Shown one piece after another: positions 265-12,057 of a DNA stretch of 64,000 nucleotides. Each line of letters starts with the position of its first letter. Position 1 is the first letter of the stretch. The translations under genes were made by a program, and so were the position numbers. Under the pieces are notes generated by a model. That model saw only the letters and a program-made list of their open reading frames with translations, did not search any database and had not been told where the DNA came from. Source of the stretch: an uncultured Acidimicrobiia bacterium (GTDB taxonomy: Bacteria; Actinomycetota; Acidimicrobiia; Acidimicrobiales; CAIXPF01). The stretch spans positions 7,733 through 71,732 of the forward strand of contig CAIXPF010000139.1 in NCBI GenBank assembly GCA_903921205.1, read 5' to 3'.

Positions 265-972
265 TCAGACGAAGCGGAACCGGGTGCCGCACACCTCGAC
301 GGACTCACCGCGGCGCGCCGGATCGGCGGCCACGACGTCCACTCCGGACACGCCCTCGCCGCGCCCGTCGGTGACCGGTACGAAGCGGACCTCACCCCGC
401 TCGAAGCGCAGGCACGTACCGGAGCCGTCGACCGTGCCACCGATCACGTCGGCCCAGCGAGCGGCCATGGAAGCCGGGTCGTCGGCCTGGATCTCCACCG
501 CAGCCATGGTGGTCACGGTGTCGGTCCGCACGTGGTCGCGCCAGTTGGGCCCGGCCCACTCCCAGTCCTCCGCCGGCTCCGCCTGATCAATGGACACGAT
601 CGCCCCGCCGACGTCGCGCGGATGGACGTGCAGACCGCAGATGGCCGCACCCTGCGCGGTGTACACCAGGCGGGTCCCGGTGCGCTCGATCCGGGCGCGG
701 GCCTCGTCGAGGTCGTCGGTCTGCACCAGCACCATGTAGCCGCCGTTGCCGCCACGGCGTTCGAGCAGACGTCCGGCGGTCGTACCCTCCTGGATCGGGG
801 AGACGACCTCGAGGAACGTGTCCCCGATCGGGAACAGGGCGTTGTGCAGCCCGAACTCGCCGACCCCGGGATCCCGGAAACAGAGATCCACCCCGAGGGC
901 GGATCGGACCTCACCCTCGACGGGGGTGAGGTCCCGGGCGACAAGAGCGACCTGACGGAGACGAAGAGCCAT
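265..972 (-). CDS. VOC (glyoxalase/bleomycin-resistance/dioxygenase-like) family protein
   Basis: 235-aa ORF with a two-module layout. N-terminal LRQVALVARDL...FLEVVSP and C-terminal AVEIQADDP...RFV strands are typical of glyoxalase-like folds. ATG at 970-972. Confidence 0.7.
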   Translation of the reverse strand: MALRLRQVALVARDLTPVEGEVRSALGVDLCFRDPGVGEFGLHNALFPIGDTFLEVVSPIQEGTTAGRLLERRGGNGGYMVLVQTDDLDEARARIERTGTRLVYTAQGAAICGLHVHPRDVGGAIVSIDQAEPAEDWEWAGPNWRDHVRTDTVTTMAAVEIQADDPASMAARWADVIGGTVDGSGTCLRFERGEVRFVPVTDGRGEGVSGVDVVAADPARRGESVEVCGTRFRFV

Positions 973-1005
973 CCCCGGAGCTTCGCGCGCCGCGCATCCG
1001 GATGC

Positions 1006-2346
1006 TCAGCTACGCACGGCCACGAACGGCTCCCCGGGGCTCAGCGACCGCGCCTGGGGGGACAGCTCCCCCATGACCCGGGCGTGATGGGCGCGTGCGT
1101 CGGCGAGGCTCGGCCGCAACACCGACTCGCCCCGTTGGACGAAGCGGTGCTGCAGAGCGCGCACCCCGGCCGTGTCGAGTTCAGCGGCGAGGGCGTCCTG
1201 CACCACGACCTCCTCCACCGCCAGCCCAGAGCCGTCCAACCGCCGACCGGCCACCTTGCGGCCGCCATGGGTCGCCTTGCCGGTCGATTGCTTGGCCACC
1301 GGGTGCAGGGGCGCTGCGTCACCGGGCCGGTCGGCCATCGCCACCAGCTTGTACACCAGGCCCGCTGCCGGCGCGCCCGACCCGGTGACCAGCTGCGTGC
1401 CGACCAGCATCCGATCGACCAGGGCACCGCCGCGCACCAGTTGCTCGATGCTCCACTCGTCGAGATCGCCCGAGACCACGATGCGGGTTCCGGTTGCCCC
1501 GAGCTCGTCGAGCAACGCCCGGGCCCGCCCCGCCATCTCGTGCAGATCGCCCGAGTCGATGCGGATCGCGCCGAGCTGCGTCCCGGCCACCGCCACGGCG
1601 TTGCGAATGCCCGCCTCGACGTCGAAGGTGTCGACCAGCAGCGTGGTCGACGGCCCGGTCATCGCCACCTGCGCTGCGAACGCCGCCCGCTCGTCGGCAT
1701 GGGCCAGGATGAACGCATGGGCCGCGGTGCCCCCCGTCGGGACCCCCCAGCGTCGACCGGCCTCGAGGTTGGAGGTGGCCGAGAATCCGACGAGGTACGC
1801 GGCGCGCGCCGCGGCCGGCGCCGCCTGCTCCGAGGTACGGCGGCTACCGGCCTCGATCAGGGGACGACCGGCGGCGGCGGTGACCATCCGTGCGCCCGCA
1901 GCTGCCACGGAGCAGTCGTGGTTGAGCACCGACAGCACCACGGTCTCGAGTACCACCGCCTCGGCAAAGGTCGAAGCCACCGTGAGGATCGGCGAGTCCG
2001 CGACGTACAGCTCACCCTCGGCGTACCCGGTGATGTCACCACGGAACCGGTAGGACGCGAGCCACTCCAGGGTTCCGGGATGCAGGAAGTCCTGCTCGGA
2101 CAGCCACGCCAGCTCGGCGTCACCGAAGCGGAACTGCTCGATCGCATCGAGGAGCCGATCGGTACCGGCCACCACGCCGTACCGACGACCCGGTGGCAGG
2201 CGGCGGGTGAAGCACTCGAAGACCGCCCGGTGCTGGGCCACGCCGGACTGCAGTGCCGCATCGACCATGGTCAGCTCGTACTGGTCGGTCAGCAGGGAAG
2301 TGGGGACGGGGCAGGAGGCCGATGCCCGAACTGCCCGCTCCCCCAT
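1006..2346 (-). CDS. pncB: nicotinate phosphoribosyltransferase
   Basis: N-terminal SLLTDQYELTM signature, then GTAAHAFI and later NAPRTase-like blocks. Start trimmed to ATG at 2344-2346 (MGERAV...) because the longer ORF would run into the divergent tspO start. Confidence 0.88.
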   Translation of the reverse strand: MGERAVRASASCPVPTSLLTDQYELTMVDAALQSGVAQHRAVFECFTRRLPPGRRYGVVAGTDRLLDAIEQFRFGDAELAWLSEQDFLHPGTLEWLASYRFRGDITGYAEGELYVADSPILTVASTFAEAVVLETVVLSVLNHDCSVAAAGARMVTAAAGRPLIEAGSRRTSEQAAPAAARAAYLVGFSATSNLEAGRRWGVPTGGTAAHAFILAHADERAAFAAQVAMTGPSTTLLVDTFDVEAGIRNAVAVAGTQLGAIRIDSGDLHEMAGRARALLDELGATGTRIVVSGDLDEWSIEQLVRGGALVDRMLVGTQLVTGSGAPAAGLVYKLVAMADRPGDAAPLHPVAKQSTGKATHGGRKVAGRRLDGSGLAVEEVVVQDALAAELDTAGVRALQHRFVQRGESVLRPSLADARAHHARVMGELSPQARSLSPGEPFVAVRS

Positions 2347-2446
2347 GGGGCGCCATCGTAGGCCGTGCAGGCGGTCGCGGTCCGGTCCGGAGCCGGGCGG
2401 TGAGGACCGACCCGCCACGGTGGGAACAACCGTGCGAACATGCCCT

Positions 2447-2917
2447 ATGCGTCCTTCGGCGATCGCGACCGCCACCCTCAGCACGGTGTTCGTCGTCGGT
2501 TACGCCGTGCTGTCGGGGCGGTGGGTGACCAGCAGCGATGCCTGGTACCGATCGCTGGTCCGCCCTCCGTGGCAGCCCCCCAGCGTGGTGATCGGCCTCA
2601 TCTGGCCGTACAACTTCGCCGTGCTGATCGCCGCCGGTCTCGCCGTGGCCTTTCGGGGCACCACGGTCGACCGCGGGATCTGGCTCGTCGCGCTGCTGCT
2701 GTCGGTCATCGCCGCGTTGAGTTGGGCCCGGCTGTTCTTCGTCGGCCACGCCCTGTGGCCGGCAGCGCTCGCCTTGATCCTGGCCGCGCTGCTCAATCTC
2801 CCCGCGGTCATCGCGGCCTGGCGGACCCGGACCTGGGCCGGGGCGGTGCTGATCCCCTACGCCGTGTGGTTGGCAGTCGCAGCGTCGGTGTCGGTCGGCT
2901 ACGCCCGCCGCAACTGA
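2447..2917 (+). CDS. tspO: TspO/MBR tryptophan-rich sensory protein, copy 1
   Basis: 156-aa protein with five hydrophobic helices and TspO motifs (WYRSLVRPPWQPP, GLIWPYNF, AWARLFF-type, PYAVWL). Start at ATG 2447, since the upstream part of ORF 2207..2917 is antisense to pncB. Confidence 0.85.
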   Translation: MRPSAIATATLSTVFVVGYAVLSGRWVTSSDAWYRSLVRPPWQPPSVVIGLIWPYNFAVLIAAGLAVAFRGTTVDRGIWLVALLLSVIAALSWARLFFVGHALWPAALALILAALLNLPAVIAAWRTRTWAGAVLIPYAVWLAVAASVSVGYARRN

Positions 2918-2987
2918 CACCGGAGCGACCGACGACCATGCGTCGTCGATCGTCACAGCCCCGTGGTGCGGCGTGTCCCGGTGCCGG

Positions 2988-3866
2988 CTAGCCGGCGATG
3001 GCGGCCAGGCCGGGGGGAAGGGCAACACCGGTCCGCTTGGCCTCGTCCTGCACCACACGGCGGAGTTCGGCCAGCCGGTCGGCCCACTGCGGCGTCTTCC
3101 CGGTGCGGGCCATCTCGACCCGTTCGACCCCGATACCGCCGCTGGAACGGCCGGCTCCATCGCTGTGGGTGACCTCGGCGATCTCGAGCTCCGAACCGTC
3201 GGGCATCACGTACTCGACCGAGTACGACGCCACCTGCGGCGCGTCCGGGTGGCCGGCCGGGGCGAAGTACCCCGAACCCGATCCGTCCTTCACGGCCACT
3301 TCCCACGGCCGCAGGCGGATCTGCGGGGCCAGGATCCCCCACTGGGCGAGACGGGGGAAGAACGCCGACGAATGATCGGTCGTGGTGACCCGAAGCCGGG
3401 TCGGGTCCAGTGCGACGACCTTGGTCAGGTACTCGAGCACGAGGTCCGTCGCCGTGTTCGCCAGGGCCGGGGTGCTCGTGTCGAGGCCGATGATGCTGAA
3501 CAGCGGAAGCGTGCCCGGTGTCGCCTTCTTCGCGACGTCCTCCGTCCGTGCGACCTGCTGTCTCAGATACGTCCGCTCGCTCAGCGCCCGCACGTCGTCG
3601 TCGTAGCGGAGCCCGCCGTTGAAGGCCAGCCCGGTGATCAGCGGGGCTGCCGCCGCCGCCGTGTAGCCGCGGCCGCGGAGGAAGGCATCGAATCCGGCCT
3701 CGGTCGCCCCGCCGGCCACCGCCGTCGACCTGACGGCGGGCACCGAACCGGCCGCCGAGTCGGACCCGGCCGAGTCGGACGACGAACCGCAGGCAGCAAG
3801 GACTCCGGCCGCGAACCATGCAGCGGCTCCACCCTCGATGAACGTGCGCCGGGACAGCGACATCAA
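2988..3866 (-). CDS. Tat-signal lipoprotein; mature part resembles a degenerate class II AlaRS catalytic core
   Basis: N-terminus MMSLSRRTFIEGG (S-R-R-x-F twin-arginine motif), an h-region, then lipobox VLAAC-G. High GC3. The mature region shows AlaRS-like blocks (see finding). Confidence 0.7.
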   Translation of the reverse strand: MMSLSRRTFIEGGAAAWFAAGVLAACGSSSDSAGSDSAAGSVPAVRSTAVAGGATEAGFDAFLRGRGYTAAAAAPLITGLAFNGGLRYDDDVRALSERTYLRQQVARTEDVAKKATPGTLPLFSIIGLDTSTPALANTATDLVLEYLTKVVALDPTRLRVTTTDHSSAFFPRLAQWGILAPQIRLRPWEVAVKDGSGSGYFAPAGHPDAPQVASYSVEYVMPDGSELEIAEVTHSDGAGRSSGGIGVERVEMARTGKTPQWADRLAELRRVVQDEAKRTGVALPPGLAAIAG

Positions 3867-3963
3867 CGCGCTCCTTGTCCGTCCGACTCGTCCTGCTGAC
3901 GGCGGGGTGCACGCACCCTAGACCTGCGGCAGGCGATGTCGATCGCGTCGGAGTCAGCGGAAC

Positions 3964-4047
3964 TCAGGCGTTACGCGCCATGTCGGCGAACGTGGTGTAC
4001 GGCCCGAGGAAGGCCAAACGGACCGTTCCCGTGGGTCCGGCCCGATG
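3964..4047 (-). pseudogene. relic copy of the dnaB 3' end (last 27 codons plus stop)
   Basis: The minus strand reads HRAGPTGTVRLAFLGPYTTFADMARNA-stop. Intact DnaB ends HRAGPTGTVRLAFLGQYTKFANMARNP-stop at 6124-6207, giving 23/27 identical residues. The two are also clearly alignable at nucleotide level. No upstream ORF continues the relic. Confidence 0.8.
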
Positions 4048-4084
4048 CGGACCGCTCCGCCCCCCACCGGCGTCGGGCCCGCGG

Positions 4085-4108
4085 CGCGACCGCGACCGCG
4101 ACCGCGAC
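4085..4108. repeat. hexanucleotide tandem repeat (cgcgac)x4
   Basis: Read directly: cgcgac cgcgac cgcgac cgcgac. Lies between the dnaB relic and tspO copy 2. Confidence 0.9.
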
Positions 4109-4163
4109 CGGTGTGGGAGGGGTGCGACCTCCGCCCGTGCAGGGCGCTCTGGGACAATGGACC

Positions 4164-4634
4164 ATGCGCATCGGTCCGGTCACCACCGCCATCGTCAGCA
4201 CGGCCCTCGTCGTCGTCTACGCCGCCGGGTCGGGACGGTGGGTGGCGAGCGGCGACGCCTGGTACCGGTCTCTGGTCCGCCCTGCGTGGCAGCCGCCCGA
4301 CATCGTGTTCGGCCTGATCTGGCCGTACAACTTCGCAGCCCTGATCGCCGCCGGCCTGGCCGTCGCCCTGCGCGGCTCGGCCGCGGCACGCTGGAGTTGG
4401 CTGATGGCCTTGTTGCTGAGCGTGATCGCCGCGTTGGCGTGGGCCCGGCTGTTCTACGTCGACCACGCGCTCCTCGCCGCGGCGGTGGCCCTGGTACTGG
4501 CCGCTCTCATCACGGTGGTGGCGGTGGTCGCCGCCTGGCGGACGCGAACCTGGGCCGGGGCCGTGCTGGTCCCCTACGTCGTCTGGCTCGCCCTCGCCGC
4601 ATCGCTGTCGATCGAGTACGCCCGACGGAACTGA
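4164..4634 (+). CDS. tspO: TspO/MBR tryptophan-rich sensory protein, copy 2
   Basis: 156 aa, gap-free collinear with copy 1 (WYRSLVRPAWQPP, GLIWPYNF, AWRTRTWAGAVL, YARRN-stop are shared). ATG at 4164. Confidence 0.85.
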   Translation: MRIGPVTTAIVSTALVVVYAAGSGRWVASGDAWYRSLVRPAWQPPDIVFGLIWPYNFAALIAAGLAVALRGSAAARWSWLMALLLSVIAALAWARLFYVDHALLAAAVALVLAALITVVAVVAAWRTRTWAGAVLVPYVVWLALAASLSIEYARRN

Positions 4635-4714
4635 CGGCCCCACCGGCCGCGGGCCGGCGACGCCGACGCCCACGACGCGCGTCGGCGCCTGCGGCACCTA
4701 CCGCTGACCGCGGG

Positions 4715-5926
4715 TCAGGCCCGGGCCTGCACCACCACCCCGGCGCGGACCAGCTCGGCGTAGTCGGCCGGGCTCAGCCCGGCCACGGAGGTGAGCACCG
4801 CCTCGTTGTCCTCACCGAGGTCCGAGGCCTGCAGCTCGAGCAGTTCCGGGTACTCCGAGAAGCGGATGGGCACCCCGGGCATGTCGAACGCACCGATGCG
4901 GGGGTCGGTCACGCTGCGCACGATGCCGGTGCCGCGGAGGTGCGGATGGGCGACCGCCTCCTCGACGGTGAGGACCGGTGCCGCCGGCACGTGCTGGGCC
5001 TGCATGGCGGCCAGCGCGGTGTCGCGGTCGGGCTGGGTGGCGAGCCACGCGGCGATGACGGCGTTGACCTCGTCGCGCCGCGCCACCCGGCCGGCGCTGG
5101 TCGCGTAGCGCTCGTCGGTGGCGAGCTCCGGCCGGCCCATGGCCAGACACATGTCGGCCCACTGGCGGTCGTTGGCGGCGGCCACGATGACGTGCCCGTC
5201 GGCCACCGGGAACACGCCGTACCCTCCGACGAAGGGGTGCAGGGAGCCGCTGCGCATCGGTTCCATCGCCCCCTCGGAGATCGACCATGCCTGCACGTTC
5301 ACCTCGTGACAGGTCATGTAGCAGCCCAGCAACGAGATCTCCACGTGCTGGCCGCGCCCGGTGCGCTCGCGGTGGTACAGCGCAGCGGCCACCGCCCCGA
5401 ACCCGTGCACCCCGGTCAGCACGTCGCCCGGGGACAGGCCCATCAACGACGGCGCCCGGTCGGCTTCGCCGTTCATGTGCAGCACGCCACCGTAGGCCTG
5501 GGCGATGGCGTCGTAACCGGGGTGGTCACGCAGCGGACCCTCGGTCCCGAAGGCGGAGATCGAGCACATGATCAGACGGGGGTTACGGGCCGACACCGCT
5601 TCCCAGCCGAAGCCGAGGCGTTCGATCACCCCCGGGCTGAAGTTCTGCACCAACACGTCGACCTGCTCGACGAGCGCCATCACCACCTCGCGGCCGCGGG
5701 GATCCTTGACGTCGACGCAGATGCACTGCTTGCCCCGGTTCTGCTGCACGAAGTAGCCGGAGCGACCGTTACGCATCGCGGGCAGCCCCCGTGACATGTC
5801 CCCGGCGGGTGGCAGCTCGACCTTGACCACCTCGGCCCCGAACTCGACGAGGAGGCGGGTGACCGACGGCCCCGACAGGACGTTGCTGAAATCCAGCACC
5901 TTGACGCCATCGAAGATCCCCTGCAT
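4715..5926 (-). CDS. family III CoA-transferase (CaiB/BaiF/Frc-like)
   Basis: N-terminus MQGIFDGVKVLDFSNVLSGPSVTRLL...GAEVVKVE is the typical family III opening. A later GDxxTG-type block (SPGDVLTGVHG) is present. ATG at 5924-5926. Confidence 0.85.
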   Translation of the reverse strand: MQGIFDGVKVLDFSNVLSGPSVTRLLVEFGAEVVKVELPPAGDMSRGLPAMRNGRSGYFVQQNRGKQCICVDVKDPRGREVVMALVEQVDVLVQNFSPGVIERLGFGWEAVSARNPRLIMCSISAFGTEGPLRDHPGYDAIAQAYGGVLHMNGEADRAPSLMGLSPGDVLTGVHGFGAVAAALYHRERTGRGQHVEISLLGCYMTCHEVNVQAWSISEGAMEPMRSGSLHPFVGGYGVFPVADGHVIVAAANDRQWADMCLAMGRPELATDERYATSAGRVARRDEVNAVIAAWLATQPDRDTALAAMQAQHVPAAPVLTVEEAVAHPHLRGTGIVRSVTDPRIGAFDMPGVPIRFSEYPELLELQASDLGEDNEAVLTSVAGLSPADYAELVRAGVVVQARA

Positions 5927-6123
5927 TACGCCCCCTCGATCCACCCGTGACGGGCCGGAGGCTACCCGCCCTCCGCCGAGGCGTCCCTGCCCACCGGCTC
6001 GAGGCCGGCCGGGACGCAACTCGGCCGGGCCCGACCCAGCGGGACCCGGTGCCGCCGGATGCAGGGCGCCGGCGGGCGCGGTAGGGCCCCGGTGCTCGAC
6101 CTCGATGGCGCCCTACAACCGGA

Positions 6124-7491
6124 TCAGGGGTTGCGGGCCATGTTGGCGAACTTGGTGTACTGACCGAGGAACGCCAGGCGGACCGTGCCGGTGGGCCCGG
6201 CCCGGTGCTTGGCGACGATCACCTCGGCGATTCCCTGGTCCTGCGTGTCCTGGTGGTACACCTCGTCGCGGTAGAGGAACAGCACGACGTCGGCGTCCTG
6301 TTCGAGCGACCCGCTCTCGCGCAGGTCCGACAGCATCGGACGCTTGTCGGCCCGCTGCTCGAGGCCACGGTTGAGCTGCGCCAACGCCACGACCGGGGCT
6401 TCGATCTCACGGGCCAGGATCTTCAGCCCACGGCTGATCTCGGCCACCTCGACCTGGCGCGACTCGGCTCCGGATCGGCCGGTCATCAGCTGGATGTAGT
6501 CCACGACCACCATCCCCAGCTCGCCCACCTGCGACTTGAGCTTGCGGGCCTTCGAGCGGATCTCCATGACCGTGACGTTGGGGTTGTCGTCGATCCAGAT
6601 CGGCGCCTCGGCCAGCGGACCGACGGCACGGCCCAACTTCTCCCAGTCGGCCTCCGACAGCTTGCCGGTCCGCATCCGGGTGGCGTCCACCCTGGCCTCC
6701 GAGGACAGCAGGCGCTGGGTGATCTCCAGTCGGCTCATCTCGAGGGAGAACACCAGCGACGGCTTGTGGGAGGCGAGCGCCCCGTGGGCTGCCATCCCGA
6801 GGGCGAAGCTGGTCTTGCCCATGGCAGGCCGGGCACCGACCACCACCAGGGCGTTGGGCTGCAACCCGGCCAGGATCTCGTCGAGGTCGACGTAGCCGGT
6901 CGGGGTGCCGGTGATGGCCTCGCCCCGCTCATAGAGCTGCTCGAGCCGGTCCAGGGTCTCACCGAGCAGCTCGTGCACCGAAGCCGTGCTGCTCTCCACC
7001 CGGTGCTGCGCCAGGTTGAAGATCATCGACTCGGCCTGGTCGATGGCCTTGGTCACGTCGTCGGGCAGCGAGTAGCCGAGCTCGGCGATCTCGCCGGCGG
7101 TGTTGATCATCGAGCGCAGCAACGCCAACTCCTCGATGATCTCGCCATGCCGACGGGCATTGGAAATTGCCGGAGCCGATGCCTGCAGGGCGATCAGCGT
7201 GCCGGGACCCCCGATGGCGTCGAGCAACCCCGCCCGGTTCAACTCGTCGGCCACCGTGATCGGGTCGGCCGGCTCGCCTGCGCTGTACAGCGTGGCGATG
7301 GCGTCGAAGACGTGAGCGTGGGCGGGCTTGTAGAAGTGCTCGGGCCGCACCAGTTCGGTGGCGGTGGCAATGGCGTCGCGCGACAGCAGCATGGCGCCGA
7401 GCAGCGACTCCTCGGCCTGCAGGTTGTGTGGGGTGACACGGGCCGAGGTCCGGCCCGGCTCACCGCTGGACGGTGACACCATGATCCTCAC
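6124..7491 (-). CDS. dnaB: replicative DNA helicase DnaB (no intein)
   Basis: PHNLQAEESLLGAMLL N-terminal motif. Walker A GARPAMGKTSFAL, DYIQLM, SRGLKILAREIEAPVVALAQLNR and RESGSLEQDADVV are present. GTG start at 7491; an alternative ATG lies at 7482. Confidence 0.95.
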   Translation of the reverse strand: MRIMVSPSSGEPGRTSARVTPHNLQAEESLLGAMLLSRDAIATATELVRPEHFYKPAHAHVFDAIATLYSAGEPADPITVADELNRAGLLDAIGGPGTLIALQASAPAISNARRHGEIIEELALLRSMINTAGEIAELGYSLPDDVTKAIDQAESMIFNLAQHRVESSTASVHELLGETLDRLEQLYERGEAITGTPTGYVDLDEILAGLQPNALVVVGARPAMGKTSFALGMAAHGALASHKPSLVFSLEMSRLEITQRLLSSEARVDATRMRTGKLSEADWEKLGRAVGPLAEAPIWIDDNPNVTVMEIRSKARKLKSQVGELGMVVVDYIQLMTGRSGAESRQVEVAEISRGLKILAREIEAPVVALAQLNRGLEQRADKRPMLSDLRESGSLEQDADVVLFLYRDEVYHQDTQDQGIAEVIVAKHRAGPTGTVRLAFLGQYTKFANMARNP

Positions 7492-7541
7492 ACCTTGGGC
7501 GACGCGGGCTGTGCGTTTCCAGGGGACAGCCCGGAAATTGC

Positions 7542-7593
7542 TGTGGACAACGCGGTGGACACTGGGTACGACCAGAGTCCGAACTGTGGATAA
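7542..7593 (-). promoter_or_regulatory. DnaA-box pair upstream of dnaB
   Basis: tgtggacaa (7542-7550) reads TTGTCCACA on the minus strand. tgtggataa (7585-7593) reads TTATCCACA. A weaker ggtggacac lies at 7554-7562. They sit in an A/T-richer stretch 51-102 nt upstream of the dnaB start. Confidence 0.55.
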
Positions 7594-7620
7594 CGATGTG
7601 TAAAGAGGGGCTGATCTGGG

Positions 7621-7659
7621 GAAAATAGCGACTGCGCCACCCCGAGGGGCGGCGCAGTC
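7621..7659 (-). terminator. intrinsic terminator after rplI
   Basis: The minus strand reads GACTGCGCCGCCCC-UC-GGGGUGGCGCAGUC, a 14-bp stem with one mismatch, followed by GCUAUUUUC. Lies 34 nt downstream of the rplI stop. Confidence 0.65.
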
Positions 7660-7692
7660 GACCTACACCGGTGGTGATGTCACGCTGGGTGA

Positions 7693-8142
7693 TCAGCGAG
7701 CAACCACGTCGACCTGCAGGAAGATCTGCACGTCGTTGTGGAGATGCGCAGGCACGGAGTGCATGCCGACGGTCTTGAGCGGCTCTTCCATCGCAATGGT
7801 GCGACGGTCGATCTCGAGACCGGTCTGGTTGTAGACCGCCTCGACGACGTCGGCCTCGGAGACCGACCCGAACAGACGGCCTTCGCCGCCGGCCCGGGCT
7901 TCGATCTTGATGACCGTGGGAGCCAGACGCTTGGCGATCTCCTCGGCGGCGGCGCGGTCACGCGCATCCTTGATGTCCCGGGACACCCGCATGGTGACGG
8001 CCTGTGCCTCGGCACCGGCCGAGGAGCGCATCGCCAGACCCTGGGGCAGCAGGTAGTTACGGGCGTACCCGTCGCTCACCTCGACCAGCTCGCCCCGCTT
8101 GCCCAGACCGCGCACGGTATCGCGCAGGATGACCTTGATCAT
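7693..8142 (-). CDS. rplI: 50S ribosomal protein L9
   Basis: [37 protein letters not shown] is the canonical L9 N-terminus. ATGA overlap with the rpsR stop. Confidence 0.95.
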
Positions 8143-8534
8143 TCCTCGACCTCCTCGGCCTCGGGCACCTCGATGGCCTCGTCAGCCACCGGTGCCAACT
8201 CGGTGTCCTCACCACGCGGCGGACGACCTTCACCCCGGTTACCACGGTCGGGACGCGAGCTGCGCTGCGTAGTGACCCGGTTGGTGTACGGCAACAGCGC
8301 CATTTCCCGGGCGTTCTTGATGGCCATCGCCACCGCCCGCTGCTGCTGCTGATCGTTGCCGGTCACGCGTCGGGCACGGATCTTGGCCCGGTCCGACATG
8401 AAACGGCGCAGAAGGTTGACGTCCTTGTAGTCCACGTACTCGACCCGCTCCTGGGTGAGAACGGAGATCTTCTTCTTCGCGCGCTTGGCGTTGTCCTTCA
8501 GCTTGCCCCGTTGGGGGCCCTTGACCTTCGCCAT
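8139..8534 (-). CDS. rpsR: 30S ribosomal protein S18, with a long acidic C-terminal extension
   Basis: Core [28 protein letters not shown]...[13 protein letters not shown]. Carries about 50 extra C-terminal residues ending [10 protein letters not shown]. Confidence 0.93.
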
Positions 8535-9010
8535 CAGAACGGCTCCTCGTCGTAGTCATAGGCCGGCGGTTGATTGGATGCAGGGCGGGCGAAGCTGCCA
8601 CCGGAACCGGGGCCGCCACCTCCCGCGGGGGTGCCGCCATCTCCACGGCGCTCGTTCTTGGTCACCTCGGCCGTGGCCCAACGCAGGGACGGTCCGATCT
8701 CATCGGCGACGACCTCGATCTTCGAGCGACGATCGCCATCCTGGGTTTCCCACGAACGCTGCTCGAGCCGACCCTGCACCAGCACGCGGGAACCGCGACT
8801 CAGCGACTCGGAGATGTTCTCGGCCAGCGTGCCGTAAGCGACCACATCGAAGAAGGAGGTTTCTTCCTTCCACTCATTGGTGTTGCGATCCTGGCGGCGA
8901 CGGTTCACCGCCAAGCCGAACTGGGCGACGGCCATGCCGCCCGGGGTGAACCGCAACTCGGGATCGCGGGTGATGTTGCCGACGAGGTCGACACTGTTTC
9001 CGATCGCCAT
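8534..9010 (-). CDS. ssb: single-stranded DNA-binding protein
   Basis: OB-fold N-terminus [21 protein letters not shown], a Gly-rich linker and an acidic tip DYDEEPF. Confidence 0.95.
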
Positions 9011-9558: not shown

Positions 9559-12057
9559 TCAGCCGGCCCCGCTAGGGGCGGACGAAGTCGGTGGGGACGG
9601 CGCGGTCGTCACCGGCGACGTGGTGGGCGGCGGAGCACTCGATGTCGTCGAAGCCGGGCCCGTGGTCGTGCTGGTGGCGCCCGTCACGGGACGCGAGGTC
9701 GTGGGGGACGGCGTCGTCGTGGAGGGCACCGCAGTCGACGTCGTCGGCACGGCGACCGTGGTCACGGACCGGAACCCACCGGGTGGCACCTTGCCGGAGA
9801 AGTCGCTGACGTCGGTGACCTCGAGCTTGCTGCCCGGGAACTTGGTGGTCGTGGGCAGCTCACAGCCGGGCGTGTCCTTGGTCGCCTCGGTCATGAAGCG
9901 CGACCAGATCTGCGCCGGGAGCGTGCCACCGGCGACGCGGGCCACGCCGTGCACGTCGACCATCGAGGTCACCGGCTGCCCGTCGGTGCCCGGATAGCCC
10001 ATCCACACCGCAGCCGTGAGCATGCCGGTGTCACGGCAGGAATACCCCACGAACCAGGCATCGCGATAGTCCTCGGTGGTGCCGGTCTTGCCCGCGGCGG
10101 GGTTGGGAATGCCCGCCGCCTGACCGGTTCCCCGCTCGATCACGTCGACCATCGCCGTGGTGACGGCGTCGGCCGTCTCGATCTGCAGGACCCGCGTGGG
10201 GTTGTAGGCCGGGGCGGACCACAGCACCTTGCCGGCGGCGTCCTCGACCCGGGTGACCAACTGCGGCTCCACGTAGGAACCCCGCCGGGCGATCGTCGAA
10301 TAGGCGCTCGCCATGTCCTGCACCGAGACCTCACCCGACCCGAGCACCAACGCCGGAACGGGCGCCAGGTCCGCCGTCACCCCCATCCGCTCTGCCAGCG
10401 CCACGACCCTGGCCGCGCCCTCCCGCAGCATGAGCTGGGCGTAGACCGTGTTGGAGGACTGGGCCAGGGCGTCGATCAGGTTGTAGCGGCCCGACGTGGA
10501 ACCTCCCCCCGAAACCTCCCAGTCCTGGCCGTTGTTCGCCCCCTTGAAGACGACCTGGGACGGGGCCGGGAAGGTCGACTGCGCCGACAGACCGTCCTCC
10601 AGCGCGGCGGCGAGGGCGAAGGGCTTGAAGGTCGAACCCGGCTGTCGGCCCGAACCACCGCCGAGTCGTCCGGTGGCCAGGTTCACCTGCGACCGGCTGA
10701 AGTCCTTGCCGCCGACCATCGCCACGATGCGGCCACGGTCGTCCTCCGCCACCAGCGAGCCGGCCGGGTCGCCCTCCTCGTTGAGGATGCCCTCGATCGG
10801 TGGTCCCGCAGCAGCGTTGCGGCCGTACACCGTCGCATACGCCGCATCCTGGAGGGTTCGATCGAGGGTCGTGTAGACCCGCAGCCCCCCGGTGAAAACC
10901 TGCTGCGCACCGAAACGGTTCAACAGCCACTGGCGCACGGCGTCGACGAAGTACTCCGCGCCCGCACCCTCGTAGTAGAGCTGGCTGCCGTCAGCGGACT
11001 CGAGGCGTGGTTGGACGTACCCGTTGACCTGATCCTCCGCCAGACGCAATGGCAACGCCTGGGCCGCTTGGCGCTGCTGGTCGGTGATGTAGCCCTCCTC
11101 GACCATGCCGTCGAGCACCGAATCGCGTCGGAAGGCTGCCTCCTCCGGATCGAAGTAGGCGTCGGCGGTCTCGGGCGAGCGGATCAGGCCGGCCAGATAG
11201 ACCGCCTTGGCCAACCCCTTGGCACTGGTCGCCGGAGTGTCGTAGTCGGCGCCGACGAACTCGATGCCGTGGCCGAAGTAGGCGTTCGAGGCCGCCTCGA
11301 CCCCGTAGGCCCCTCGCCCGAAGTAGATCGTGTTCAGATAGTCGGTGAGGATCTCTTCCTTGGAGCGGACCCGCTCGAGCTTCACGGCGAGCACCGCCTC
11401 GCGCAGCTTGCGGGAGAGGCTGCGTTCCTGGGTCAGGAAGGCGTTCTTGACGTACTGCTGGGTGATGGTCGACCCACCCTGCAGTCCGCCCCGGTTCTGC
11501 AGGTCACGAACCACGGCCCGAGCGATGCCGAAGGGGTCGATCCCACTGTGGCGGAAGTAGTCGCGGTCCTCCGCCGCCAGCACCGCCGCCACGACCACCG
11601 GCGGGATCTGCTCGTAGGGCACCACCACCCGATCCACCTCGGCCCGGAGACTGGCGATCTCGTTGCCGCGCGAGCAGCCCGAGGTCACCTCCGCCGAGCA
11701 GAGGTAGGTGGTCTGCGCCAGGTCCGGTGTGGGCGGCAACTGCACCCGGGAGACGACCACGACGACCCCGACGAGCGCCAGGACCGACAGCACCGCGGTG
11801 GCCACCAGCACGCGCCTCCAGCGCCACAAGACGTTGCGTCGTACCCGGCGACGGCGGTGCTGCTCGAGGCGGCGGACGTGCTTCTGTTCCTGTCGCGCAG
11901 CCTTGCGCAACGACACAGGCTCGGCGGACCCGCCCGCAGCCGCACCCGCGCGGCCCCGCGTCGCACCCCCGGTTCGGGCGGTCTTGGCACCGGTCTTCGA
12001 ACGGGAGCTGGACGAGGACGATCGACGCTTCGCTCCCGACCGGTCCGATGCCGTCAT
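9559..12057 (-). CDS. class A penicillin-binding protein (glycosyltransferase plus transpeptidase)
   Basis: GT51 motifs (AAEDRDYFRHSGIDP, GGSTITQQYVKN, RKLREA). Transpeptidase motifs (STFKP, SSN, KTGT). N-terminal TM and a Pro/Thr/Ser-rich tail. Start set to ATG 12055-12057, which overlaps the upstream stop (ATGA). Confidence 0.9.
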   Translation of the reverse strand: MTASDRSGAKRRSSSSSSRSKTGAKTARTGGATRGRAGAAAGGSAEPVSLRKAARQEQKHVRRLEQHRRRRVRRNVLWRWRRVLVATAVLSVLALVGVVVVVSRVQLPPTPDLAQTTYLCSAEVTSGCSRGNEIASLRAEVDRVVVPYEQIPPVVVAAVLAAEDRDYFRHSGIDPFGIARAVVRDLQNRGGLQGGSTITQQYVKNAFLTQERSLSRKLREAVLAVKLERVRSKEEILTDYLNTIYFGRGAYGVEAASNAYFGHGIEFVGADYDTPATSAKGLAKAVYLAGLIRSPETADAYFDPEEAAFRRDSVLDGMVEEGYITDQQRQAAQALPLRLAEDQVNGYVQPRLESADGSQLYYEGAGAEYFVDAVRQWLLNRFGAQQVFTGGLRVYTTLDRTLQDAAYATVYGRNAAAGPPIEGILNEEGDPAGSLVAEDDRGRIVAMVGGKDFSRSQVNLATGRLGGGSGRQPGSTFKPFALAAALEDGLSAQSTFPAPSQVVFKGANNGQDWEVSGGGSTSGRYNLIDALAQSSNTVYAQLMLREGAARVVALAERMGVTADLAPVPALVLGSGEVSVQDMASAYSTIARRGSYVEPQLVTRVEDAAGKVLWSAPAYNPTRVLQIETADAVTTAMVDVIERGTGQAAGIPNPAAGKTGTTEDYRDAWFVGYSCRDTGMLTAAVWMGYPGTDGQPVTSMVDVHGVARVAGGTLPAQIWSRFMTEATKDTPGCELPTTTKFPGSKLEVTDVSDFSGKVPPGGFRSVTTVAVPTTSTAVPSTTTPSPTTSRPVTGATSTTTGPASTTSSAPPPTTSPVTTAPSPPTSSAPSGAG

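Follow-up and report, generated by a model that had tools for sequence, protein, structure and literature searches.

Why does a second, diverged copy of the 3′ end of dnaB lie downstream of an intact dnaB gene, and what does it record of the history of that locus? The question is raised by a stretch of 64,000 nucleotides (nt) from an uncultured bacterium of the Acidimicrobiales (contig CAIXPF010000139.1 of assembly GCA_903921205.1), which we call here the window; the genome that holds it (G000, in 208 contigs) belongs to a genus with eight species in the collection that we compared. The extra copy, called below the relic, is 84 nt long and is separated from dnaB by the gene of a family III CoA-transferase (CoAT) and by one of two tspO genes, within an interval that ends at pncB, the gene of nicotinate phosphoribosyltransferase. 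The answer that we favour, and to which we would give about an even chance, is that two diverged versions of the contents of this interval were joined in tandem by recombination, the relic being the seam of the resulting composite locus.

The displaced dnaB end and the two tandem modules

Read on the minus strand, positions 4047-3964 of the window translate to HRAGPTGTVRLAFLGPYTTFADMARNA-stop, and the C-terminus of DnaB, encoded at 6207-6124 (minus), reads HRAGPTGTVRLAFLGQYTKFANMARNP-stop. The two segments form a direct, in-frame repeat with 70/84 identical nucleotides (83%) and 23/27 identical amino acids (aa), and they are spaced 2,160 nt. Their similarity (blastn between the halves of the region, E=3.9e-21; tblastn, E=2.6e-9; repeat family D2) is bounded exactly by the His codon and the TGA, the sequences past the two stop codons being unrelated. 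In this regard, the coordinates, strand, sequence, 23/27 identity and abrupt end at the His codon are all as described in the original prediction, an earlier note made from the letters of the window. The reading frame of the relic is stopped 45 codons upstream and offers no usable or plausible start, and therefore the relic is not part of any longer functional open reading frame (ORF), in agreement with its earlier description as a relic.

All four replacements of the relic fall in codons 16-27, in or beside CAGTACACCAAGTTCGCCAACATGGC, a stretch that is nearly invariant across the genus, and two of them (Q>P and K>T) are absent from every working DnaB of the genus. Its silent changes are mostly unique to the relic, and all but one lie within codons 1-15; the codons of the relic at its silent sites are CAT, ACG, GGA, CGT, TTG, GGG and CGT. 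The functional DnaB, for its part, keeps the same C-terminus as found in G007, G003, G005 and the metagenome contigs introduced below as Z. The relic recurs in the sister species (G001), in scaffold L068 and in contig L065, each time with further changes, which in G001 include one extra replacement. In L065 (positions 1-53; a near-identical strain, with pncB 99.8% identical), three more replacements of the relic (T>P, F>S and N>H) fall in the terminal 53 nt of this Logan contig, which may reflect fast decay or contig-end errors.

The dnaB end is one of two repeats in the interval. The tspO gene next to the CoA-transferase (tspO2) is a direct repeat of the one next to pncB (tspO1), with 76.5% nt identity over 459 nt and 71% aa identity; since tspO2 repeats tspO1 as the relic repeats the dnaB 3′ end, the region consists of two tandem modules, each made of tspO, one gene and a dnaB 3′ end. 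Self-comparison, a check proposed by the original prediction, brought out directly both the dnaB repeats and the tspO1/tspO2 repeat, which had been noted earlier and given no weight. In a sensitive self-comparison, the modules share the tspO coding sequence (459 nt) and the 84 nt only. Their middle genes and all intergenic segments are mutually unrelated, and homology along the entire unit, the hallmark of a simple tandem duplication, is not seen here.

In the direction of dnaB, the gene order is rpsF-ssb-rpsR-rplI-dnaB-CoA-transferase-tspO2-relic-lipoprotein-tspO1-pncB-glyoxalase, with gaps of 197 nt between dnaB and the CoA-transferase gene, 116 nt between tspO2 and the relic, 97 nt between the relic and the lipoprotein gene, and 100 nt between tspO1 and pncB. 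Both tspO genes lie on the strand opposite to dnaB. The features of the interval are the following:

6124-7491, minus strand: dnaB, intact replicative helicase of 455 aa, with full-length Pfam DnaB and DnaB_C matches
6124-6207, minus strand: functional copy of the 84-nt repeat, from His428 to the stop, from repeat and alignment comparison
5927-6123, minus strand: dnaB-CoAT intergenic region, its last ~48 nt homologous to the region upstream of the CoA-transferase gene in contig X (L070, see below)
4715-5926, minus strand: family III CoA-transferase (CoAT), 403 aa, Pfam CoA_transf_3, E=9e-117
4164-4634, plus strand: tspO2, a TspO/MBR paralog of 156 aa, convergent with the CoA-transferase gene, Pfam E=2e-18
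4048-4163, no strand: 116-nt spacer from the tspO2 start to the relic, with a (GGTCGC)n microsatellite at ~4080-4108 and the novel joint at 4047/4048
3964-4047, minus strand: displaced dnaB 3′ end (the relic, a pseudogene fragment), 83% nt and 23/27 aa identity to 6124-6207
3867-3963, minus strand: relic-lipoprotein intergenic region, unrelated to the sequence 3′ of the functional dnaB stop
2988-3866, minus strand: predicted lipoprotein, 292 aa, no Pfam match
2447-2917, plus strand: tspO1, TspO/MBR, 156 aa, divergent from pncB, Pfam E=9e-18
1006-2346, minus strand: pncB (nicotinate phosphoribosyltransferase), Pfam NAPRTase_N, the conserved right-hand neighbour of dnaB in relatives

The Pfam matches bear out the earlier annotation of the segment between the copies as a second tspO and a family III CoA-transferase. 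The first ~145 nt of the dnaB-CoAT intergenic region have no counterpart, and G001 has 98 nt extra in this region; the CoA-transferase itself is 98.5% identical in G001.

One candidate for a further shared segment had to be dropped. By eye, the spacer at 4048-4163 could be taken for the tspO1-pncB intergenic region plus the first pncB codons, with GTGGGGGGCGGAGCGGTCCG resembling ATGGGGGAGCGGGCAGTTCGG, and this homology, had it held, would have proven an unequal crossover between pncB and dnaB. No significant alignment was obtained between the spacer and either the tspO1-pncB intergenic region or the pncB 5′ end, the local score being reached by 449-782 of 1000 dinucleotide shuffles. The microsatellite of the spacer (window 4080-4108) counts 4 copies in the window and about 2 in G001, and a related GGTCCG-type run is found upstream of tspO1 in the opposite orientation (2371-2400).

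A variable slot between dnaB and pncB

In this Acidimicrobiales genus, the dnaB-pncB interval is a variable slot. The names that homologs bear in databases suggest Acidimicrobiales / Ilumatobacteraceae-like bacteria. By genome, its contents are nothing at all, tatA, two crcB genes, tspO alone, or a CoA-transferase plus tspO. An empty site, which the original prediction had proposed to look for in close relatives, occurs in G007 (DnaB 95% identical) and in G002-G005 (87-90%), where dnaB is followed by ~100-130 nt, pncB and the glyoxalase gene. In G006, a convergent gene of the TatA family sits in the gap (L037 ~10096-10251, Pfam E=6.5e-15), and in G008, from another genus, the gap holds the two crcB genes (L041 2626-3457, E~1e-25), so the dnaB-pncB gap appears as a recurrent landing place for small membrane-protein genes.

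Two further states bear on the composite locus of the window. In the metagenome contigs L073 and L074 (together Z; SRR8437736, ERZ27275072), dnaB is followed by 74 nt, a convergent tspO and pncB, and the whole 2.16-kb unit is absent: there is no CoA-transferase gene, no lipoprotein gene and no relic. The contigs are close to the window, with 99% aa identity in dnaB over 99 residues, 87% between their tspO and tspO1, and 94.7% in pncB, and this version is matched in the window by the genes on the right side of the relic. The blastn match between Z and G000 extends 19 nt beyond the tspO1 stop, and local alignments of the 74-nt dnaB-tspO spacer of Z with the intergenic segments of G000 were not significant. 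The second state is that of contig X (L070; JGI 3300007200), where dnaB (97.5% identical over 203 residues) is followed by 76 nt, a CoA-transferase gene (86%) and a convergent tspO, inside which the contig ends. The module that would have come in is thus found resident elsewhere, and the 48 nt upstream of the CoA-transferase gene in X have a homologous counterpart in the window (score 46; shuffles 18.8 +/- 3.0, maximum 33).

The composite with the relic was observed in G000, in G001 (DnaB 98%), in the ENA scaffold L068 and 13 similar contigs, and partly in L065. The full order dnaB-CoAT-tspO2-relic-lipoprotein-tspO1-pncB is confined to the window genome, its sister species and near-identical metagenome contigs, and makes the fourth of the locus states that are seen directly. 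Among 41 relatives, the lipoprotein gene is present in G000 and G001 only; its homologs (33) are at most 65% identical outside this pair, and those at 56-65% lie in unrelated contexts. A donor in which the lipoprotein gene would come after dnaB was looked for at five loci (P0005, two of P0007 and P0018 by tblastn, and P0026 from gene lists) and rejected, the contexts being unrelated. The CoA-transferase homologs P0037 and P0036 (77-78% identity) occur in other contexts and show no dnaB repeats, a metagenome scan for the contexts of such homologs returned one contig only, which was unrelated, and the tspO of the wider clade (P0164) has a different genomic context.

Some further observations were made around these genes. 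In G010 (L060 3985-5663) and G013 (L059 505-2183), from another genus of the family, a different family III CoA-transferase (42% identity) is encoded directly upstream of tspO, which is 62-63% identical to tspO2 and co-directional with the CoA-transferase gene. Genes for TspO and a CoA-transferase are therefore adjacent in three arrangements, which could be due to chance or to a functional link. A motif with an internal inverted repeat, CTTACGCTCATCTTGAGTACAAGG, is found just upstream of pncB in G002-G005 (L036, L038, L039 and L004) and is not evident in G000, G001 and G007; it may be an operator of nicotinamide adenine dinucleotide (NAD)-salvage regulation. As for dnaB itself, its matches are split into 2-3 pieces in G011, G012, G014, G016, G017, G023, G027 and G040, within single open frames of 700-940 aa, as expected of an intein-containing dnaB.

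Divergence of the copies and origin of the composite

The silent-site divergence (dS, by the Nei-Gojobori method) offers a measure of how far the parts of the locus have moved apart. Between G000 and Z, dS is 0.28 for dnaB, 0.34 for pncB and 0.29 for tspO1; between G000 and X, it is 0.53 for dnaB and 0.52 for the CoA-transferase gene; between G000 and G001, dnaB shows 0.24, and between G000 and G007 the values are 0.9-1.0. Because the CoA-transferase and dnaB values are equal in the comparison with X, the CoA-transferase gene has adjoined dnaB since the split of X and G000, and its behaviour is that of a gene resident in the slot, for part of the clade, rather than that of a mobile element.

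The two tspO copies of the window differ with a dS of 0.64 (replacement divergence, dN, 0.20), and the relic differs from the functional dnaB end by 10 silent and 4 replacement differences (proportions pS 0.46 and pN 0.067). The tspO copies and the dnaB-end copies thus have about equal silent divergence (about 0.6-0.7), yet the relic replacements are very few. When Z and G001 serve as references, the branch specific to the relic bears 7 silent and 4 replacement changes, where simulated neutral decay would give 27-36% silent changes (P = 0.012-0.06 across five mutation models, on 27 codons). These data speak against a duplication in situ with neutral decay thereafter (P about 0.01-0.06), in a way that is suggestive and not decisive because they come from 27 codons only.

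In the tspO tree, tspO2 is sister to the pair of tspO1 and the tspO of Z (support 98/89), and the dnaB ends show the same shape: within the 84 nt, the functional end and Z differ at 5 positions, all synonymous, the relic and Z at 12, and the relic and the functional end at 14. The functional dnaB is 6% divergent from Z in its last 84 nt as well as in the preceding 216 nt, as expected for native sequence, while the relic is 14% divergent from Z. A recombination breakpoint inside dnaB was considered and discarded, none being visible in the 300 nt covered by Z, with the same 6% in both parts. On these counts we lean to the relic as the incoming copy and the functional end as the native one (favoured about 4:1, Poisson on silent counts). 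The original prediction had the original end displaced to the far junction; a displaced end is indeed there, but the copy that matches Z better is the functional one (5 differences vs 12), so that the relic need not be the original.

Under the merger that we favour, one version of the slot would have been of the dnaB-CoAT-tspO type, as in contig X, and the other of the dnaB-(lipoprotein)-tspO-pncB type, as in contig Z. We infer that, in two lineages about as distant as G000 and X, the modules diverged while each still worked as a version of the locus, and that they were recently joined head to tail in the lineage to which the window genome and its sister species belong. Recombination would have been guided by the common and highly conserved dnaB 3′ end, with a single illegitimate joint, at 4047/4048, to complete the merger. 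It may have followed either of two routes: a linear fragment may have entered by homology-facilitated illegitimate recombination, or a circularised fragment that bore a dnaB 3′ end may have been integrated by a Campbell-type single crossover. An incoming relic would be arranged as from a circularised [dnaB end-CoAT-tspO2-spacer] with a single crossover in the conserved 3′ half of the 84 nt, and the reverse arrangement as from a linear fragment anchored in dnaB. Either way, the product would be a 2,160-nt unit [dnaB 3′ end + CoAT + tspO2 + spacer] placed before a second dnaB 3′ end, with dnaB intact, and only after the merger would one dnaB end have become a pseudogene, the redundant parts now decaying. 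The order read in the window is that of a 3′-end displacement, with an intact dnaB as anchor, new cargo, an orphaned 3′ end and the old downstream genes.

Several points weigh against this merger. The key statistic comes from 27 codons, and its P value reaches 0.06 when the mutation model is at its most biased. The CoA-transferase version was found on no contig that runs through to pncB (X ends inside tspO), the partial tspO of X does not group clearly with tspO2, and the presumed immediate precursor, dnaB-lipoprotein-tspO-pncB, was found in no lineage. Moreover, the similarity of the spacer at 4048-4163 to the resident pncB 5′ region is not significant, and an origin in place and an origin between lineages predict an identical tree shape.

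A tandem duplication in place, which we consider unlikely, would have doubled within one chromosome the unit from the dnaB His codon through tspO to just before pncB; the copies would then have diverged, and the middle gene would have been replaced or inserted independently, the CoA-transferase gene in one and the lipoprotein gene in the other. The geometry fits exactly, with the same order and orientation and a single novel joint, tspO1 and tspO2 are mutually closest apart from Z, and the 116-nt spacer gives a weak global-alignment signal (z about 2.6) with the region upstream of tspO1. However, homology limited to the tspO coding sequence and the 84 nt, stopping at the stop codon and leaving different intergenic DNA and middle genes, is not what such a duplication would leave, and the scenario would call for two more gene insertions, independent of each other and at equivalent positions, together with a loss in Z. 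The substitution counts also misfit either age by Poisson arithmetic: an old duplication (as the tspO split) with a neutral relic predicts ~15 replacements where 4 are seen, and a young one, fitted to these 4, predicts ~3 silent differences where 10 are seen. Even the best compromise age for a duplication in place followed by neutral decay is rejected by a hand-calculated likelihood ratio (P about 0.02). The plain segmental duplication that the original prediction had kept as its alternative is disfavoured on the same two grounds, the limited homology of the modules and the pattern of silent and replacement changes.

The original prediction itself had read the locus as the footprint of an element that integrates into the 3′ end of a gene and supplies a replacement end. 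Part of this survives, since one dnaB end is intact, one is displaced and empty sites exist; the dedicated integrative element does not. A site-specific integration of an islet or degenerate prophage with its own dnaB 3′ end, its recombinase since lost, is in our judgement improbable. In its favour, att-like direct repeats derived from the 3′ end of the target gene bracket the insert and leave the gene intact, unoccupied sites are seen in relatives (dnaB-pncB, and dnaB-tspO-pncB in Z), and the excess of silent differences would fit a functional replacement end borne by the element. Against it, no recombinase, integrase, transposase, excisionase or tRNA was found in or near the unit, as the earlier note had already stated for the integrase, and no recombinase was found in the composite loci of G001 or L068. 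The ORFs of the repeat-bracketed unit (3964-6207) match TspO and CoA_transf_3 only, that is, a membrane protein and a metabolic gene, and those of the flanks (scanned over 265-7491) are glyoxalase, NAPRTase, the second TspO, the lipoprotein with no Pfam match and DnaB. Plasmid and phage databases gave no match, and searches of Rfam and for promoters and terminators returned nothing. The compositional contrast with the flanks that the earlier note had suggested looking for did not appear, with a G+C fraction of 0.68-0.75 in the unit vs 0.69-0.75 in the flanks and no skew break. Moreover, the same two genes follow dnaB in X with a dS equal to that of dnaB, which indicates vertical residence, and no dnaB repeat accompanies the other contents of the slot (tatA, crcB, or tspO alone). 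An integrase-driven element is thus not supported.

It is very improbable, in our view, that the last 84 nt, with their ~27-nt near-invariant stretch, are specifically targeted as a recurrent docking site by small cassettes that lack a recombinase, or that the relic is kept for a role, for example in the expression of the lipoprotein gene. Such a docking site, if real, would require a targeting mechanism, trans-acting or encoded by the host, of which no example has yet been described at an essential replication gene.

Finally, a chaining of two co-existing strain variants in the metagenome-assembled genome can be set aside as having next to no chance: G000 is in 208 contigs and the Logan contig L065 breaks inside the relic, but the same joint and order recur in G001, a different species-level genome, in the ENA scaffold L068 and in 13 further contigs, the independent assemblies differ by substitutions, microsatellite length, the 98-nt indel after dnaB and a 178-nt tspO2 deletion, and the Q>P and K>T replacements are unseen in any working DnaB of the genus. 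The composite structure is real.

Decay, probable exchange and comparison with known systems

In G001 and L068, tspO2 carries the 178-nt deletion, internal and frameshifting, with the loss of residues ~55-111 (L034 ~4529-4809; L068 8305-8585), so that tspO2 is a pseudogene in the sister species and intact in the window genome. Between G000 and G001, dS is 0.037 for the CoA-transferase gene and 0.074 for the lipoprotein gene, in comparison with 0.09-0.28 for the flanking core genes (window 265-9010 vs L034: rplI 0.28, dnaB 0.24, pncB 0.09). This uneven silent divergence indicates mosaic recombination around the locus. The accessory genes are much less diverged at silent sites than the core genes, and it seems that homologous recombination carried the islet from one of the two species to the other once they had split. 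The rplI-dnaB intergenic region is only 81% identical between both genomes.

Integration with a replacement end has a classical counterpart in e14 and phage 21, which reportedly (Hill, Gray and Brody, in 1989) integrate into the icd gene of Escherichia coli with an alternative 3′ end borne by the phage. As in that case, the housekeeping gene of the window is intact and a diverged duplicate of its 3′ end, with mostly silent differences, stands at the far junction. Those elements, however, encode an integrase and are excisable, whereas here there is none, and in a relative the inserted genes belong to the chromosome at this very locus.

Among described patterns, the nearest is the C-terminal displacement of Rhs and type VI secretion system (T6SS) effector-immunity loci (Kirchberger et al. 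2017, PMC5361080; Jackson et al. 2009 cited there). In these loci, an incoming module takes its anchor in the conserved upstream part of the gene and pushes away, as orphans, the old 3′ end and the gene that followed it, and homology-facilitated illegitimate recombination, free of any integrase, has been proposed as the route (PMC5361080). In this mechanism, foreign DNA is inserted beside a conserved gene by way of one homologous anchor and one illegitimate joint (PMC3240628); PMC5361080 cites for it de Vries and Wackernagel 2002, Prudhomme 2002, and Meier and Wackernagel 2003. It is an experimental mechanism and not a family, and at the dnaB locus its action would be inferred only. The dnaB locus shares with the Rhs and T6SS loci the arrival of a new 3′ end with its genes and the pushing downstream of the former end, but there the toxin differs from one 3′ end to the next and diversification is the purpose, whereas here both ends encode nearly one peptide of an essential helicase, the cargo is a CoA-transferase and a TspO, and a single displacement is seen instead of an array.

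The locus also resembles flexible genomic islets and insertion hotspots, in that conserved flanks, dnaB and pncB, bracket small cargos that differ by lineage, and in that the accessory genes are less diverged than the core between two species. In flexible islets, however, one version normally replaces another without a duplicated flank, and here both versions are kept in tandem. Altogether, this is ordinary genome plasticity and not a new mobile element or mechanism, a known kind of event at an unusual gene. A caution follows for similar cases, as a diverged repeat of a gene 3′ end is by itself no evidence for an integrase-driven element, and the value of the locus is that of a documented case. 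It offers a natural example, in an uncultured freshwater-type Acidimicrobiales, of how accessory genes gather beside an essential gene without disrupting it, with the conserved end of the gene as a recombination anchor and the old end pushed downstream. The silent divergence of the accessory genes, two- to six-fold lower between the two species, points to an islet exchanged after speciation, and the four states of the locus (empty, tspO, CoAT-tspO and composite) provide a stepwise record of islet growth.

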